From the IMG/VR virus record IMGVR_UViG_2802429226_000002, positions 1-7,138 of that record: a stretch of 7,138 bases of DNA; one strand, 5' to 3'. Below are positions 1-7,138 of this stretch, piece after piece. The DNA is from a virus. Lineage: Duplodnaviria; Heunggongvirae; Uroviricota; Caudoviricetes. The notes under the pieces were generated by a model. It saw nothing but the letters and a program-made list of their open reading frames with translations. It did no database searches and was not told the origin of the DNA. A program made the position numbers and the translations under genes. The first letter of the stretch is position 1, and each line of letters starts with the position of its first letter.

Positions 1-159
1 GTGGTTGGTTATTACCCGAAATTAAGCCAGCTCGTTTCCGGCCTGATGCATCACGATATTCTGACCGGAAGCGCAAAATCTTTTGCCGATTTAAACGCGC
101 AGGTTGAGCAACTCAGCAAGCGTTGTTCAGAGGCGTTCTCCAGAGGAGCGTCTGAATGA
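1..159 (+). CDS. 3' end of an upstream early-operon gene (partial; N-terminus lies outside the window). By synteny possibly a P2 B-like or other early gene, identity not established.
   Basis: Frame 1 is open from base 1 to a TGA at 157-159 (translation ...KRCSEAFSRGASE*). The stop overlaps the ATG of the next gene (ATGA at 156-159), typical of translationally coupled phage operons. Not in the ORF track because it has no start within the window. Confidence 0.4.
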   Translation: MVGYYPKLSQLVSGLMHHDILTGSAKSFADLNAQVEQLSKRCSEAFSRGASE

Positions 160-1163
160 TTACTGATGCACGTTGCCATACTGAAAATACCATCAATGTT
201 ATTTTTGTTTCAGGTGGAAAGGACAGCCTTGCTCAGTGGCTTGTCGCTATTGAAGAAAATGTACCCATATTGCCGGTTTTTGCTGATACGGGACATGAAC
301 ATCCACAGACAATGAAATATCTGGATTATCTGGAAAAACGGCTTGGCCCAATTAAAAGAGTCAGGGCTGATTTTTCCTGCCGGATTGAATCAAAGCGCAA
401 GTTTATCCAGACCAAATGGCCTGATTTGTTGGTTAACGATTGTGGAATGTCGGAAGAAGAAGCACGCCAGCGCATCAGTTGTGCGCTGGAAATTCTCAAA
501 CCAACGGGTATCCCGTTTCTTGATTTGTGTTTGTGGAAGGGGCGTTTCCCATCAACCAAAGCCAGATTTTGCACATTTGAACTGAAACATGAGCCCGTGC
601 GTTCTCAGGTAATATTGCCTTTACTCAATGAATTTGAGGAAGTGATTAGCTGGCAGGGAGTGCGTGCTCAGGAATCGCCATCACGCGCAGCTTTACCTGT
701 CTGGGAAGAGGATGCAGACAACACCCCCGGATTGCATGTATATCGCCCGATTTTGCACTGGAAGCATGAAGATGTATTTGCAATAGCCAGAAGACATGAC
801 ATTAAGCCAAATCCGTTATATCAGCAGGGGTGTGGCCGTGTTGGTTGTATGCCATGTATTCATGTCCGTAAATCTGAACTGGCAGAAATTTTTCGCCGGT
901 GGCCGGAGGAAATAAAACGGGTTGCTGAATGGGAACGACTGGTTGCGTCGTGCTCCCGTCGGGGAAATTCCACTTTTTTCCCATCCACACATGATCCGCT
1001 ACGCGCAGAACGTCGTATTGAGATTGTAACAGTCGAGGCATACGGAATAGAAACCTACCATGACTGGACAATGACAACGCGTGGGGGTACTCAGTTTGAT
1101 TTACTGGCTTCGGCGAATGATAAAGCCGTTTGCAGTAGTGTCTATGCCGGTGTATGTGAATGA
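156..1163 (+). CDS. PP-loop ATP pyrophosphatase superfamily protein (PAPS reductase-like), 335 aa; phage accessory gene of unknown role
   Basis: N-terminal SGGKDS motif (nt 210-227) is the classic SGGxDS PP-loop of the PAPS reductase / ATP sulfurylase-like family. A Cys cluster C-x4-C-x2-C (CGRVGCMPC, nt 831-857) lies near the C-terminal third. A GAGGAG Shine-Dalgarno sits at 143-148, 7 nt upstream of the ATG. The stop overlaps the start of gene A (ATGA at 1160-1163). Confidence 0.75.
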   Translation: MITDARCHTENTINVIFVSGGKDSLAQWLVAIEENVPILPVFADTGHEHPQTMKYLDYLEKRLGPIKRVRADFSCRIESKRKFIQTKWPDLLVNDCGMSEEEARQRISCALEILKPTGIPFLDLCLWKGRFPSTKARFCTFELKHEPVRSQVILPLLNEFEEVISWQGVRAQESPSRAALPVWEEDADNTPGLHVYRPILHWKHEDVFAIARRHDIKPNPLYQQGCGRVGCMPCIHVRKSELAEIFRRWPEEIKRVAEWERLVASCSRRGNSTFFPSTHDPLRAERRIEIVTVEAYGIETYHDWTMTTRGGTQFDLLASANDKAVCSSVYAGVCE

Positions 1164-3433
1164 GTCATTCTTTCCAGGAGCAATACACCTGCGTACCTCC
1201 GTCTGCGTTTGCCGCAGGCACCGGTAAGGCGTTTACCGGTGCTTATGCATGGAATGCGCCACGCGAGGCTGTCGGGCGCGAAAGACCCCTTACACGTGAC
1301 GAGATGCGTCAGGTGCAAGGTGTTTTATCCACGATTAACCGCCTGCCTTACTTTTTGCGCTCGCTGTTTACTTCACGCTATGACTACATCCGGCGCAATA
1401 AAAGCCCGGTGCACGGGTTTTATTTCCTCACATCCACTTTTCAGCGCCGTTTATGGCCGCGTATTGAGCGCGTGAATCAGCGCCATGAAATGAACACCGA
1501 CGCGTCGTTGCTGTTTCTGGCAGAGCGTGACCATTATGCGCGTCTGCCGGGGATGAATGACAAGGAGCTGAAAAAGTTTGCCGCCCGTATCTCATCGCAG
1601 CTTTTCATGATGTATGAGGAACTCTGCGATGCATGGGTTGATGCACATGGCGAGAAAGAATCGCTGTTTACAGATGAGGCGCAGGCGCATCTGTATGGTC
1701 ATGTTGCTGGCGCTGCACGTGCTTTCAATATTTCCCCTCTCTACTGGAAAAAATACCGTAAAGGACAGATGACCACGAGGCAGGCATATTCTGCCATTGC
1801 CCGTCTGTTTAACGATGAGTGGTGGACTCATCAGCTTAAAGGCCAGCGTATGCGCTGGCATGAGGCGTTACTGATTGCTGTCGGGGAGGTCAATAAAGAC
1901 CGTTCTCCTTATGCCAGTAAACATGCCATTCGTGATGTGCGTGCGCGCCGCCAGGCAAATCTGGAATTTCTTAAATCGTGTGACCTTGAAAACAAGGAAA
2001 CCGGCGAGCGCATCGACCTTATCAGTAAGGTGATGGGCAGTATTTCTAATCCAGAAATTCGCCGGATGGAGCTGATGAACACCATCGCCGGTATTGAGCG
2101 TTACGCCGCAGCAGAGGGTGATGTGGGGATGTTTATCACGCTGACCGCGCCGTCAAAGTATCACCCGACACGTCAGGTCGGAAAAGGCGAAAGTAAAACC
2201 GTGCAGCTTAATCACGGCTGGAACGATGAGGCATTTAATCCAAAGGATGCGCAGCGTTATCTCTGCCGTATCTGGAGCCTGATGCGCACGGCATTCAAGG
2301 ATAATGATTTACAGGTCTACGGTTTGCGAGTCGTCGAGCCACACCACGACGGAACGCCGCACTGGCATATGATGCTTTTTTGTAATCCACGCCAGCGTAA
2401 CCAGATTATTGAAATCATGCGTCGCTACGCGCTCAAAGAGGATGGCGACGAAAGAGGAGCTGCGCGAAACCGTTTTCAGGCAAAACACCTTAACCGGGGC
2501 GGTGCTGCGGGATATATCGCGAAATACATTTCAAAAAACATCGACGGCTATGCACTGGATGGTCAGCTCGATAACGATACCGGCAGGCCGCTGAAAGACA
2601 CTGCCGCGGCTGTTACCGCATGGGCGTCAACGTGGCGCATTCCGCAATTTAAAACGGTTGGCCTGCCGACAATGGGGGCTTACCGTGAACTACGCAAATT
2701 GCCTCGCGGCGTCAGCATTGCTGATGAGTTTGACGAACGCGTCGAGGCTGCACGCGCTGCCGCAGACAGTGGCGATTTTGCGCTGTATATCAGCGCGCAG
2801 GGTGGGGCAAATGTCCCGCGCGATTGCCAGACTGTCAGGGTCGCCCGTAGCCCCTCGGATGACGTTAACGAGTACGAGGAAGAAGTCGAGAGAGTGGTCG
2901 GCATTTACGCGCCGCATCTCGGCGCGCGTCATATTCATATCACCAGAACGACGGACTGGCGCATTGTGCCGAAAGTTCCGGTCGTTCAGCCTTTGACTTT
3001 AAAAAGCGGCATCGCCGCGCCTCGGAGTCCTGTCAATAACTGTGGAAAGTTCACCGGCGGTGATGCTTCGTTACCGGCTCCCACACCTTCTGAACACGCC
3101 GCAGCAGTGCTTAATCTGGTTGATGACGGTGTTATCGAATGGAATGACCAGGAGGTCGTGAGGGCGCTCAGGGGCGCATTAAAACACGACATGAGAACAC
3201 CAAATCGTCAGCAAAGAAACGGAAGCCCGTTAAAACCGCATGAAATTGCGCCATCGGCCAGACTGACCCGGTCGGAACGAATGCAAATCACCCGTATCCG
3301 CGTTGACCTTGGTCAGAACGGTATCAGCCCTCAGCGATGGGAGCTTGAGGCGCTGGCGCGTGGGGCAACCGTAAATTATGAGGGGGTAAACTTCAGGTAT
3401 CCGGTAAATGATGAGTGGCCGGGATTTAATTAA
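1160..3433 (+). CDS. A: Rolling-circle replication initiation endonuclease, P2 gpA family (HUH superfamily), 757 aa
   Basis: Long ORF with an HUH motif (PHWHMML; H-W-H at nt 2360-2368) and a paired-tyrosine motif G-Y-IAK-Y-ISK (Tyr codons at 2513-2515 and 2525-2527), matching the catalytic signature known for P2 A protein. Position immediately upstream of the hotspot and cos fits the P2 gene order. Confidence 0.9.
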   Translation: MSHSFQEQYTCVPPSAFAAGTGKAFTGAYAWNAPREAVGRERPLTRDEMRQVQGVLSTINRLPYFLRSLFTSRYDYIRRNKSPVHGFYFLTSTFQRRLWPRIERVNQRHEMNTDASLLFLAERDHYARLPGMNDKELKKFAARISSQLFMMYEELCDAWVDAHGEKESLFTDEAQAHLYGHVAGAARAFNISPLYWKKYRKGQMTTRQAYSAIARLFNDEWWTHQLKGQRMRWHEALLIAVGEVNKDRSPYASKHAIRDVRARRQANLEFLKSCDLENKETGERIDLISKVMGSISNPEIRRMELMNTIAGIERYAAAEGDVGMFITLTAPSKYHPTRQVGKGESKTVQLNHGWNDEAFNPKDAQRYLCRIWSLMRTAFKDNDLQVYGLRVVEPHHDGTPHWHMMLFCNPRQRNQIIEIMRRYALKEDGDERGAARNRFQAKHLNRGGAAGYIAKYISKNIDGYALDGQLDNDTGRPLKDTAAAVTAWASTWRIPQFKTVGLPTMGAYRELRKLPRGVSIADEFDERVEAARAAADSGDFALYISAQGGANVPRDCQTVRVARSPSDDVNEYEEEVERVVGIYAPHLGARHIHITRTTDWRIVPKVPVVQPLTLKSGIAAPRSPVNNCGKFTGGDASLPAPTPSEHAAAVLNLVDDGVIEWNDQEVVRALRGALKHDMRTPNRQQRNGSPLKPHEIAPSARLTRSERMQITRIRVDLGQNGISPQRWELEALARGATVNYEGVNFRYPVNDEWPGFN
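3017..3036 (+). other. Candidate origin of replication (ori / gpA nick region) inside the A coding sequence
   Basis: In P2 the ori lies within the 3' part of gene A (established). The sequence GCGCCTCGGAGTCCTGTCAA here resembles my recollection of the P2 ori nick region. Exact site and boundaries are uncertain and from memory only. Confidence 0.3.
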
Positions 3434-3632
3434 TGCTTTGATTTTTTAGTTAGGCTGCTCTAGAATCCACGCCAGTTACCGCTTGGGGTATCCTTGCATT
3501 GCTCTTGGTATTAGCTTTATACAAAGGGTGTAAAGGCTGCTATTGGCAACAATAGTGCTGGCATGGAGATAATCTCATGTTAAAGTTAGTGAAAGTACGT
3601 CAGTACAATCGCTATCGTTTCGGTAAGTGGGA

Positions 3633-3652
3633 GACGGTGTGTGAACACCGTC
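3633..3652. terminator. Perfect 8-bp stem / 4-nt loop hairpin between convergent genes; possible weak bidirectional terminator or RNA-stabilising stem-loop
   Basis: GACGGTGT (3633-3640), loop GTGA, ACACCGTC (3645-3652). It lies about 200 nt after the A stop and about 30 nt after the stop of the - strand ATPase gene. The following T-run is weak on both strands (GTTCTTAC on +), so it is not a textbook intrinsic terminator. Confidence 0.3.
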
Positions 3653-3680
3653 GTTCTTACCCAACCCGATGATATGCGGC

Positions 3681-5900
3681 CTAAGCGGTAACGGTTTCCT
3701 CTTCCTCTTCGTCCATCATTTTCAAATAATGTTTTTCATCACCAGTCATACGAAAAATGGTTTTTAGTTGCTCCATATATTTCTCTGGAGATATATCTCC
3801 CATGTCTGTGATGTTAACTGCATCTGAATGGGAACCTCTATTAATGTATCTATAAAATGCTCTAAAATCATTATTCTTATCATCGCTAGCAAGTTTATTT
3901 AACTCTGTCTGTAATGCATCCGTTCTATGAACAAATGCGAAGTAGTATTCCAGTATATTTCTCATGATGTTAGGTATTATAACTTTATTTACCTTTCCAT
4001 CCTTCGCATCTTTTAATACTTGCCATAGGGACTGGTATTCATTCTGAATGCTCTTTTTCTCTATTTCTGTAATTATGCTATATTCATTTTTTGTTACTCG
4101 TCCAAGATAATAATCACGCTTGAATGTTCTATCTTCTTTGCTTCTAGGAGCTAATTTGATAAGTTCATGAAAGAAATAAAGATTATGTGTGAGTATTAAT
4201 GTTTTCTTTACTGCTTTGTTATTGTTGATTATTTCATGGTGAATTATTGAGGCAATATCGTACACATAATTTTGAGAGAGGCTGGATATTGGATCATCAA
4301 TAACGATAAATACATCTCGCATATCCGTATCATTCTTATCTGTCTTACCTTTACAGCATTCTAGAAAGTAGAGAAAGGTAATTAAGGTTTTTTCACCCTC
4401 GCTAAGAGATCTGTATACATCTTTATCTGTTGTGTTTTCAGAACGTGATATAATATATTTATCATTGCTCTCAGTGTGTTTTTTTATGCTAAAACCATAA
4501 ATTCCTAATAATTTTAGACGTTGATTTATAGAATCTATGGTTGCATCAATATTAGATATTTGATCGCGTAGCTCTTTGATCTTTTTGTTATTGTTATCTC
4601 CTTGTTCTTTTATGGAATTTAATTCAAGTTGATATTGTTCATAAATGATTTTATAGTCATTCTCATATTTTGAGAAAGCTTCAAACTCAGCGTTGCATAA
4701 TTCTCTTATTGCTCCCCATATTTTGTAACGTATAGACTTTTCACTATCCTTAAATTGTTTGACTTTAATATTTATTTCTTTAATTCTATTGTTGTACTCT
4801 GTTATATTATCAACTACCTTTGCTTCAAGGTCGCTATTGGATTCCAAAATAATAGATATAGATGGGTTATTGATTTTATCTAACATCAATTTTAAATTTT
4901 TGTTTGCTATTTCCTCTAATAACGCTATATGAGATGATGTTATATCTTTTTCTTTTGAGGTGATTAATTCACAAGATGAAATCTCTTGTTTTATTTTTTT
5001 TAAATTATCTATGGTAGCGGATTCATAAGACGATCTGATAATGCGTATTTGGTCAACTTTCTTGGAGTAGCTATCATCAAAGATAGATTCTATTGCTTCT
5101 AAAAATTTGTCTTTAATAGTGTCTTCTTGGCAGAATGGGCAACATGTGCCATTTAAATATAATTCCTTCCCTTTTTTCACCCAGTCAAGGTTTTGAAGTT
5201 GTTTAATTGTTTCTGACAAATAGCTATTACTTGAGTCTATAATCGGAGTGGATAAAAATTCTTTATCTTTTTCTGAAATGATATATTTTTCTAAAGGTGT
5301 AATTGATGCAGTGAATTTATCTTTGTTCTTTAAAAGAATACTATATTCTTGAGCAAGTGACTCGATATTAACGTCAGTGGTTTGAGGGGCTTTTTTAACT
5401 TGCTCATAAAATGATCTCTTGCTTCCTAACTGACCTTTCATCAAGATCTTTAAGTCAGATGATCTAAAAGGTTCTGCTTTATTCCATATTAAATCAATAT
5501 ATTCATTTTCTTTATTGTTTTTATCTTTAATTAAACGCTCAATAACGTTTTTTTTATCTTTGTATTTTGTAAGTAGGTCTTGTCTTATAGCTTCTTTTTC
5601 CAGCAATTCTTTTTCAATGTCAGCATTTTCCTTACTTAAAGTGAATACTCCTTTTTGCTCTTTTGCATTATAAAAATTATCCTCAACAAACTTGGTATTA
5701 TAAACCAATAGGCGAAAAGTATCTATGAAAGGACATTCGCATTCTTTGTAGTCCGTGTTATTTGGATTATAGAAATAATTAGATATAGTTGATTTTCCAC
5801 AACCGTTGTGTCCATAAAGTATATTAATTTTTTTTGAGAGATTAAGAGTCGTGAAGCTATCTTTCTTATAGCTGGTTATATTCTTTAATTTAAGTTCCAT
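3681..5900 (-). CDS. ABC/SMC-like (AAA_13-type) ATPase with coiled-coil insertion, CxxC motif and C-terminal effector-like domain, 739 aa; candidate single-gene anti-phage defence protein, RloC/PrrC-like (hypothesis)
   Basis: Walker A GHNGCGKST (aa 30-38, nt 5787-5813). ABC signature LSEGEK (aa 499-504, nt 4389-4406). Walker B VFIVIDDP (aa 530-537, nt 4290-4313) followed by an LTHN H-loop-like motif. About 400 aa of K/E-rich, heptad-like sequence between Walker A and the signature, with CCPFC at aa 253-257 (nt 5130-5144). C-terminal ~150 aa form a separate domain. GAGG RBS 7 nt upstream of the ATG (read on the - strand). The gene is strongly AT-rich relative to its flanks. Confidence 0.85.
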   Translation of the reverse strand: MELKLKNITSYKKDSFTTLNLSKKINILYGHNGCGKSTISNYFYNPNNTDYKECECPFIDTFRLLVYNTKFVEDNFYNAKEQKGVFTLSKENADIEKELLEKEAIRQDLLTKYKDKKNVIERLIKDKNNKENEYIDLIWNKAEPFRSSDLKILMKGQLGSKRSFYEQVKKAPQTTDVNIESLAQEYSILLKNKDKFTASITPLEKYIISEKDKEFLSTPIIDSSNSYLSETIKQLQNLDWVKKGKELYLNGTCCPFCQEDTIKDKFLEAIESIFDDSYSKKVDQIRIIRSSYESATIDNLKKIKQEISSCELITSKEKDITSSHIALLEEIANKNLKLMLDKINNPSISIILESNSDLEAKVVDNITEYNNRIKEINIKVKQFKDSEKSIRYKIWGAIRELCNAEFEAFSKYENDYKIIYEQYQLELNSIKEQGDNNNKKIKELRDQISNIDATIDSINQRLKLLGIYGFSIKKHTESNDKYIISRSENTTDKDVYRSLSEGEKTLITFLYFLECCKGKTDKNDTDMRDVFIVIDDPISSLSQNYVYDIASIIHHEIINNNKAVKKTLILTHNLYFFHELIKLAPRSKEDRTFKRDYYLGRVTKNEYSIITEIEKKSIQNEYQSLWQVLKDAKDGKVNKVIIPNIMRNILEYYFAFVHRTDALQTELNKLASDDKNNDFRAFYRYINRGSHSDAVNITDMGDISPEKYMEQLKTIFRMTGDEKHYLKMMDEEEEETVTA

Positions 5901-5936
5901 TTTAAAACCTCATCATTGCCAATGATATTGTATAAA

Positions 5937-5990
5937 TATTTAAGCTGTTTAACATGAATTATATTGCTAAACGATAAAGATCTACCTCAG
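5937..5990 (-). promoter_or_regulatory. Candidate promoter region for the ATPase gene
   Basis: On the - strand a perfect TATAAT hexamer (plus coordinates 5958-5963) lies about 58 nt upstream of the ATG at 5900. No convincing -35 was found (GGTAGA-like at 17 bp). The region is so AT-rich that chance -10-like hexamers are expected. Confidence 0.2.
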
Positions 5991-6230
5991 AAGTTTACTT
6001 TGTTCAAGCAAAATCTTTTGTTCTAAGAGATATAAAAATTTTTATTAATAGTTTGATTTTTGTTCATGGGATTTCCTTTTTTTATGTTTTTACAAAGTAA
6101 TAACTATGCATGTATCAGGTGCATGGTTTTGCATGTGTCAAAGTTATGCGTTCTCGTTGCTTTACGTCACAGCTAGCGAGGATTCAACGTACTCATGCAA
6201 CTGCATCAAAACCGACTCGTGAAGCGGGCG

Positions 6231-6249
6231 GGCGAGGCGGGGAAAGCAC
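6231..6249. other. cos: cos site: 19-nt cohesive-end sequence of P2-type phages
   Basis: GGCGAGGCGGGGAAAGCAC at 6231-6249 matches my recollection of the P2 19-nt 5'-protruding cohesive end. It is placed as expected in a prophage or circularised genome, between the right-end hotspot and the portal gene Q. Flanking sequence is GC-rich, unlike the AT-rich insert. Confidence 0.7.
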
Positions 6250-6391
6250 TGCGCGCTGGCGGTGGTGCTGATTTTATTTTTTCAGCGTCTCAGCACGTCG
6301 TAATGGCGTTTAGATTGTGCGCCGGGGCGTTGGTGTGTCTGCGGGCTGTTTTGTGCGGTGGTGAGTGTGTGAGGGCGTGATGACGGGGTGT

Positions 6392-6413
6392 AAAAAAGCC
6401 GCCCGCAGGCGGC
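6392..6413 (-). terminator. Rho-independent terminator downstream of the portal gene (- strand)
   Basis: Read on the - strand: stop TGA, 5 nt, GCCGCC-TGCG-GGCGGC hairpin (plus 6398-6413) followed directly by TTTTTT (plus 6392-6397 = AAAAAA). GC-rich 6-bp stem, 4-nt loop, U-tract. Confidence 0.65.
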
Positions 6414-6418
6414 GATGT

Positions 6419-7138
6419 TCAGCCGTTGTCAGTGTCCAGTGAGTAGTTTTTAAAGCGGATGACCTCCTGACCGAGCCAGCCGTTTATTTCCCGAATCCTG
6501 TCCTGTAACGGGATAAGCTCATTGCGGACAAAGACCTTTGCCACTTTCTCAATATCACCCAGCGACCCGACGTTCTCCGGCTTGCCACCCATCAACTGAA
6601 AGGGGATGCGGTGCGCGTCCAGCAGGTCAGCGGAGCTGGCTTTTTTGATATTAAAAAAATCGTCCTTCGTTGCCACTTCACTGAGCGGGATAATTTTGAT
6701 GCCGTCTGGCTTTCCCTGCGGTGCATAGAGAAACAGGTTTTTAAAGTTGTTGCGGCCTTTTGACTTGACCATGTTTTCGCGGAGCATTTCGATATCGTTG
6801 CGATCCTGCACGGCATCGGTGACATACATGATGTATCCGGCATGTGCGCCGTTTTCATAATACTTGCGGCGGAACAGCGTGGCTGATTCATTCAGCCACG
6901 CAGAGTTAAGGGCGCTGAGATATTCCGGCAGACCGTACAGCTCCTGATTAATATCCGGCTCCAGCAGGTGAAACACGGAGCCGGGCGCGAAAGGTGTCGG
7001 CTCGTTGAAGGACGGCACCCACCAGTAAACATCCTCCTCCACGCCACGGCGGGTATATTTTGCCGGTGAGGTTTCCAGTCTGATGACCTTACCGGTGGTG
7101 CTGTAACGCTTTTCCAGAAACGCATTACCGAACACCAG
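6419..7138 (-). CDS. Q: Portal protein, P2 gpQ-like (PBSX-family portal), 3' part only; the N-terminus lies beyond the window end
   Basis: The - strand ORF is open to the window edge (the codon at 7136-7138 is sense) and stops at 6419-6421. It sits immediately beside cos, as Q does in P2. The translation (…YGLPEYLSALNSAWLNE…NGAHAGYIMYV…) is consistent in character with phage portal proteins; family assignment is by synteny plus recollection. Confidence 0.8.
   Translation of the reverse strand: MVFGNAFLEKRYSTTGKVIRLETSPAKYTRRGVEEDVYWWVPSFNEPTPFAPGSVFHLLEPDINQELYGLPEYLSALNSAWLNESATLFRRKYYENGAHAGYIMYVTDAVQDRNDIEMLRENMVKSKGRNNFKNLFLYAPQGKPDGIKIIPLSEVATKDDFFNIKKASSADLLDAHRIPFQLMGGKPENVGSLGDIEKVAKVFVRNELIPLQDRIREINGWLGQEVIRFKNYSLDTDNG

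Follow-up and report, generated by a model that had tools for sequence, protein, structure and literature searches.

Which function is carried by a large gene lodged in a P2-like prophage between the replication endonuclease gene and the portal gene? This question was raised by a 7,138-nucleotide stretch of viral DNA (IMG/VR record IMGVR_UViG_2802429226_000002, positions 1 to 7,138; here called the window), which belongs to a P2-like (Peduovirus) prophage of Escherichia coli. On its minus strand, an open reading frame (ORF) at positions 3681-5900 encodes a protein of 739 amino acids (aa) and ends in a stop codon. An earlier note, made from the sequence without database searches, had read this gene as RloC-like, that is, as an ATP-binding cassette (ABC) ATPase split by a long coiled coil with a CxxC motif, and had placed it at a phage defense hotspot. 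Here, the gene was examined by profile searches, alignments, structure prediction, genome comparison, and literature searches. The 739-aa protein is very probably a member of the RloC family of anticodon nucleases, and its gene adjoins a conserved structured RNA that contains a small peptide gene.

Assignment to the RloC family

Profile searches accounted for the whole protein. Pfam AAA_13 matched residues 16 to 716, i.e., the full length, with an E value of 4.6e-102. The PADLOC candidate family PDC-S06 matched with an E value of 4e-253 (840 bits), and PHROG 2801, annotated as "unknown function," gave a full-length match of 1193 bits. In addition, the PADLOC model of PrrC covered residues 454 to 734 (E value, 2.4e-14). 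The RloC-like reading had predicted hits of the AAA_13, RloC, or PrrC type, and the outcome was AAA_13 over the full length and PrrC over the C-terminal half. The NCBIfam search of the protein returned no family.

The ATPase motifs lie in two distant parts of the protein. The Walker A motif or P-loop, GHNGCGKST, occupies residues 30 to 38 (positions 5787-5813, minus strand). The C-terminal ATPase half (positions 4182-4406, minus strand) comprises the signature LSEGEK (residues 499 to 504), the Walker B motif FIVIDDP (531 to 537), the D-loop SSLS (539 to 542), and the H-loop LTHN (570 to 573). The positions given in the earlier note for GHNGCGKST (30 to 38), LSEGEK (499 to 504), and VFIVIDDP (530 to 537) are exact in the translation, and its estimate that about 460 residues separate Walker A from the signature agrees with the 460 found. 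It had also claimed a CxxC motif in the coiled-coil stretch. The protein indeed has a sole CxxC, the putative zinc hook CPFC at residues 254 to 257 (positions 5130-5141, minus strand), which lies in the predicted helical insert, on a loop of residues 249 to 263 in the AlphaFold model.

These motifs are strongly conserved. In an alignment of 25 homologues spanning 20 to 70% identity, G30, N32, G35, and K36 of the P-loop, C254, F256, and C257 of the putative zinc hook, and L499 to E503, D535, D536, P537, T571, and H572 of the C-terminal ATPase half were all invariant. The same motifs recurred in a further 60 relatives, drawn from many phyla (Proteobacteria, Bacteroidota, Firmicutes, Actinobacteria, Chlorobi, Nitrospirota, and others). 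In this wider set of 61 aligned sequences, Walker A was conserved in 60 to 61 and CxxC in 58.

RloC is a wobble-nucleotide-excising anticodon nuclease (Davidov & Kaufmann 2008; Klaiman et al. 2012, 2013). It was defined as a protein of 658 to 897 aa with PrrC-like ABC motifs, a helical insert of the Rad50 kind that has CX2C at its center, and a C-terminal motif Arg-X3-Glu-X36-52-His, in which Ser often stands before His (Davidov & Kaufmann 2008). In the Geobacillus kaustophilus RloC (GkaRloC), R692, E696, and H737 of this motif are essential (Davidov & Kaufmann 2008). The window protein has the equivalent residues R647, E651, and H691, which form a predicted anticodon-nuclease triad composed of R647-x3-E651 (in NIMRNILE) and S690-H691 (in RGSHS) at positions 3828-3962 on the minus strand. 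The whole pattern R647-x3-E651-x39-S690-H691, together with N644, was invariant in the 25 homologues, and the triad was present in 53 to 57 of the 61 sequences of the wider set. The C-terminal domain is predicted to be an anticodon nuclease of the PrrC/RloC type (HEPN class).

Judged by its sequence, the window protein displays all of the features by which RloC is defined: a length within the published range, an ABC ATPase interrupted by a helical insert that bears a central CxxC, and the C-terminal Arg-x3-Glu-x39-Ser-His. Like known RloC genes, it matches AAA_13, stands alone with no linked restriction-modification locus, is carried by a mobile element, and is low in G+C and rich in rare codons. 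The profile matches, the triad, and the split ATPase with its CxxC insert bear out the RloC-like reading, and we place the protein in the RloC family with high confidence. The names that relatives carry in their source records include one "wobble nucleotide-excising tRNase" and, for those from Streptococcus phages, "translation-disabling ACNase" (anticodon nuclease). The window protein differs from these named members in being only about 26 to 28% identical to them.

The predicted structure agrees with this layout. In the AlphaFold model, residues 1 to 90 and about 450 to 585 build an ABC ATPase head of the Rad50/SMC type, so that the N- and C-terminal halves reassemble, as the earlier note had proposed for a structure check. 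The insert of about 360 residues is nearly all helical, with long helices at residues 90 to 141, 276 to 309, 315 to 344, 356 to 381, 383 to 401, and 403 to 446, and Lys, Arg, Asp, and Glu together make up 34% of residues 81 to 490. The C-terminal domain is also predicted to be all-helical.

A side observation concerns the loop with the predicted catalytic Ser-His, RGSHSDA (residues 688 to 694, positions 3819-3839), which scores below 50 in the predicted local distance difference test (pLDDT), alone among the internal segments of the full-length model. In the model, this low score would fit a mobile active-site loop.

Two related families were compared with the window protein. PrrC, the tRNA-Lys anticodon nuclease of EcoprrI, shares the LSEGE signature, the DDP form of Walker B, and the C-terminal nuclease triad. 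However, PrrC is half the size and lacks the insert with coiled coil and zinc hook, and it is always encoded within a type Ic hsd locus, which keeps it silent. PrrC proper was ruled out by the length of 739 aa (versus about 341 to 416 aa), the 460 residues from Walker A to the signature, and the lack of an hsd locus; no hsd genes were found in the window or in the 18-kb neighborhood of an identical allele. The other family, Rad50/SbcC/SMC, has a matching head fold, but the window protein has a much shorter insert, a C-terminally fused predicted nuclease domain, and DDP in Walker B in place of the usual D-E. A plain SMC, Rad50, or SbcC protein was rejected as well, with a Pfam SMC_N score of 20 (cutoff, 40) and no SbcD/Mre11 gene as a partner.

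Probable defense cargo of a P2-like prophage

The gene lies in a variable cargo region at positions 3434-6190, which was delimited by composition, by its flanking genes, and by comparison with P2-like phages. One bound is the stop codon of the replication endonuclease gene gpA (positions 1160-3433, plus strand; Pfam Phage_GPA, E value 3e-124), and the other is the conserved cohesive-end (cos) region. Beyond the latter, the C-terminal part of the portal protein is encoded at positions 6419-7135 on the minus strand, as judged from the ORF and a profile match. The G+C content of the cargo region is 0.27 to 0.38, compared with about 0.5 in the flanks, and the rloC-like gene is the single large gene inside it. 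P2-like phages with different cargo align with the window only from about 6105 to 6195 onward; here the P2 backbone resumes and the cargo has its right edge. Positions 6231-6249 (plus strand) match exactly the 19-nucleotide sequence GGCGAGGCGGGGAAAGCAC, which we take to be the cos sequence of P2. The interval between replication endonuclease and portal protein has been described as P2 defense hotspot #1 (PMC9519451, PMC9122126), and the placement of the gene at a defense hotspot therefore holds. The same arrangement was found in E. coli E7-1N7, in a complete P2-like prophage adjoining yegR, where the gene is annotated merely as "AAA family ATPase." In Serratia and Vibrio, relatives of the gene stand alone.

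The presence of an RloC-like family at this hotspot is already known. In Table S5B of Rousset et al. 2022, an AAA_13 gene labeled "RloC-like" is cargo system #5 of the P2 hotspot, with 420 occurrences, and E. coli APEC O1 carries an allele (WP_000423308) in the same P2 slot. Both share the gpA-portal position, the family, and the architecture with the window protein, which is a distinct allele: it shares 48% identity with the Table S5B representative over residues 1 to 399 and 65% with the APEC O1 protein. No AAA_13 entry was found in Table S2 of the same study, which holds the systems tested for defense activity. "E. coli APECO1 RloC" was used in Figure 8 of Klaiman et al. 2012, and Anantharaman et al. 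2013 described ABC-HEPN proteins, of the RloC and APECO1_4465 type, that are carried by prophages; APECO1_4465 may be the APEC O1 gene identified here.

Among 5,426 complete E. coli genomes, the exact allele was present in 20 to 21. When relatives at about 70% nucleotide identity were added, the number rose to 106, or about 2%. A 64%-identical copy is carried by the isolated Enterobacter phage ENT4. In E. coli MS 198-1 (NZ_CP146687.1, 5052758-5054666), the rloC relative is split by IS5 while the adjacent small-RNA segment is kept.

The function of the window protein was approached through the biochemistry of the G. kaustophilus and Acinetobacter baylyi enzymes (GkaRloC and AbaRloC), in which an internal switch is made up of the zinc hook and a DNA-dependent ATPase, and in which mutating the zinc hook activates the nuclease. 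In the characterized RloC proteins, ATP hydrolysis is stimulated by DNA, with a preference for DNA ends, and unleashes the nuclease. Two successive cuts then excise the wobble nucleotide, damage that should resist phage tRNA repair, and inducers of double-strand breaks activate RloC in vivo. By analogy, the window protein would have tRNase and anti-phage activity. In a resting dimer, the nuclease would be silenced by the zinc hook and the ATPase region. Upon infection by another phage, DNA ends or breaks would bind the head and trigger ATP hydrolysis, and the released nuclease would cut tRNA anticodon loops and excise the wobble nucleotide. Translation would halt, the infection would abort, and the lysogen population would be protected, with no need for a linked restriction-modification partner. 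Since the copy is borne by a prophage, abortive-infection defense of the lysogen against other phages is the natural reading. Taken as a whole, including the mechanism, the account of an RloC-family anticodon nuclease as defense cargo of a P2-like prophage is in our view likely.

Several points weigh against this account. First, coiled coil does not extend uniformly through the insert. The earlier note had called it mostly charged and heptad-like; its richness in charged residues and its helicity were confirmed, but heptads were clear only at about residues 340 to 450. By a crude and simple heptad score judged against shuffles, only this part exceeded the 99th percentile, and 9.4% of the scored segments did so (0.9% in shuffles). 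Residues 143 to 262, which precede the CxxC, are predicted to form short helices and no single continuous coiled coil. Second, a profile search of the Protein Data Bank (PDB) yielded only P-loops and generic coiled coils, and no RloC or PrrC structure is present in the PDB; a single-sequence search of PDB chains with the 739-aa protein gave no match. Third, the homology to the characterized RloC proteins of G. kaustophilus and A. baylyi is indirect, running through the names of relatives and labels in the literature, and neither of the two was among the 80 loci that a scan of genome contigs brought up. Finally, the literature searches gave no biochemical or phage-challenge data for the 739-aa protein or its enterobacterial clade, and no phage-challenge test of any RloC was found in the literature searched.

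The companion RNA and peptide gene, and alternative explanations

On the plus strand, convergent with rloC, a conserved structured RNA element of 218 nucleotides was identified at positions 3475-3692 from a 16-locus alignment, RNAalifold, and covariation. The loci were four E. coli alleles, phage ENT4, three Serratia loci, one each from Yersinia, Klebsiella, Xenorhabdus, and Neptuniibacter, and two each from Vibrio and Pseudomonas. The element is closed by the long-range stem P1, in which positions 3475-3487 pair with 3680-3692, and the 3' arm of P1 spans the last three codons of rloC together with its stop codon. Inside P1 lie the hairpin P2 (3515-3535) and the hairpin P3 with a GCAA loop (3539-3556), and all of these helices covary. 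All three helices were retained in the 16 sequences despite extensive sequence change. For P1 and P2, 97% of the alignment cells were standard pairs, and in nine pairs (27 cells) both partners had changed. No shuffle out of 500 attained such values, and in slid controls 31 to 50% of the cells were paired. P3 was judged by folding each sequence separately rather than by column counts because MAFFT had misaligned it by one column in the non-enteric sequences. G-U pairs were frequent, and thus the plus strand was favored as the strand of the RNA. A promoter-like site has a -10 box, TAGAAT, that ends at position 3466, just upstream of P1, and a similar box occurs in the alignment. No Rfam family matched the element or any other part of the window, in which no tRNA gene was detected either. 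When positions 3400-3760 were scanned against Rfam permissively, only subthreshold chance matches came up, the best being RT-6 at 19 bits (cutoff, 46.7).

Within the element, a 31-codon ORF at positions 3577-3672 (plus strand), preceded by a GGAG Shine-Dalgarno sequence at 3565-3568, encodes the very basic peptide MLKLVKVRQYNRYRFGKWETVCEHRRSYPTR. The ratio of nonsynonymous to synonymous changes (pN/pS) was 0.0 to 0.5 in this frame and at least 0.7 in the other frames, pointing to purifying selection on the ORF. Every one of the 16 examined RloC relatives with 36% identity or more, including those in non-P2 contexts, was adjoined by the peptide gene. The gene was convergent with rloC in 14 loci and co-directional, about 300 nucleotides downstream, in the two Pseudomonas loci. 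Beside more distant RloC relatives, no copy was detected. The 221 bp between the gpA and rloC stop codons (3460-3680) are 84 to 86% identical between alleles whose rloC genes are about 70% identical. This segment is present in 94 genomes, directly 3' of the rloC allele where coordinates were compared, and is unannotated in RefSeq, while in public assemblies the 31-codon ORF has been called as a gene beside the AAA_13 gene. The peptide matches PHROG 21154 (function unknown; E value, 4e-9) and has no match in Pfam. Its family is small, with only 14 cluster representatives of 31 to 96 aa among 1.84 billion representative proteins. A full-text literature search for the peptide sequence, its accession, and the PHROG number returned no paper. 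In the RloC literature searched, no such companion of rloC is described, and in this respect the gammaproteobacterial clade, with its structured RNA and a gene for a peptide of 31 to 34 aa, differs from published RloC.

The structured RNA and the 31-codon ORF probably belong to the same module as rloC, for example as a regulator or an antitoxin-like partner. The strongest alternative to control by the internal switch alone is a two-part system in which the convergent RNA, its 31-aa peptide, or both act as silencer or regulator. This alternative is favored by the element standing beside all 16 relatives, in P2 prophages and in unrelated chromosomal islands, by its being better conserved than rloC itself, by the covarying helices and the purifying selection on the peptide, and by the overlap of P1 with the 3' end of rloC. 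Such a layout is shared with some type I toxin-antitoxin systems, in which convergent antitoxin RNAs overlap the 3' end of the toxin gene. However, the antisense overlap is not universal, as the co-directional Pseudomonas loci attest, the element is undetectable next to distant relatives, and G. kaustophilus RloC is regulated without any partner. Moreover, two related peptide genes have other neighbors. On two contigs, P0088 is next to a DUF4145 (HEPN) gene rather than an RloC gene, and on a third it is next to transposase genes; an inverted repeat brackets it. P0089 is located close to an integrase within a phage-like element. The element could thus belong to mobile islands in general. Weighing both sides, we hold the two-part system to be a serious possibility with somewhat less than an even chance. 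Equally tentative is its extension to the whole gammaproteobacterial clade, including all P2-hotspot alleles, which would then consist of RloC plus an RNA of about 220 nucleotides encoding a basic peptide, with the RNA, the peptide, or both serving as antitoxin, decoy, or infection sensor.

Relatives of the peptide were noted beside DUF4145 (HEPN-family) genes in L103 (3151-4099), L104 (2065-3013), and L002 (10231-11289). In L103, the peptide gene is flanked by a different inverted repeat, GAGGCTCCTT ... AAGGAGCCTC. From these neighbors and the L103 repeat, a small ORF within a closing stem may occur more widely in islands with HEPN genes. Five relatives (P0089, P0091, P0096, P0097, and P0099) have a C-terminal extension ending in QLSLF, LSFDF, LKLVF, or LAFDFF, which is lacking in the RloC-linked copies. 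These endings resemble QL[SD]LF, presumably the beta-sliding-clamp-binding motif.

Returning to the reading of the protein as an anticodon nuclease released by DNA ends, the RloC-like architecture could also serve another target (mRNA, rRNA, or other tRNAs without wobble excision) or respond to a phage protein as the trigger. The low identity to relatives named RloC or ACNase would allow this, as would the short helices predicted in the middle of the insert in place of a plain coiled coil, and the substrate range varies even among the characterized RloC proteins. On the other hand, the triad, the ATPase motifs, and the zinc-hook motif are conserved across the family, and the sequence has no sign of another substrate; this alternative is unlikely. 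Finally, the alternatives that the earlier note had named as refuting its reading (Old/TOPRIM, GajA, LmuB, or a plain SMC) were checked, and another SMC-like defense ATPase of the Lamassu LmuB, OLD/Gabija/PARIS, or SMC/SbcC type is highly improbable, since the LmuB, OLD-like, and SMC matches cover only residues 1 to 45 (LmuB, 1 to 42; the mad, HEC, and AriA models, the P-loop only), whereas AAA_13 and the PrrC-type C terminus account for the full length, and neither a second large gene nor any partner or domain of the LmuA, TOPRIM, HNH, or SbcD/Mre11 kind is present in the window.

Neighboring gene and significance

Outside the cargo region, a PAPS-reductase-like protein of 335 aa is encoded at positions 156-1163 on the plus strand (Pfam PAPS_reduct, E value 1e-34; PHROG 424, "moron"), just upstream of gpA, with weak PADLOC similarity to SspD, BrxP, and DndC. 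In the 20 E. coli prophages that otherwise match the window (85% of it covered), the ORF is missing and a DUF5405 gene takes its place. This position appears to be a second variable cargo slot.

The main result of this work is the correct annotation of proteins that RefSeq labels only "AAA family ATPase," PADLOC "PDC-S06," and PHROGs "unknown function" and that are very probably RloC-type anticodon nucleases. The locus offers a genetically tractable E. coli/P2 model for a family that has neither a PDB structure nor an anti-phage phenotype in the literature searched. If functional, the RNA and its micropeptide gene would change the view of how RloC is regulated and would add a new RNA motif to the defense-associated RNAs.

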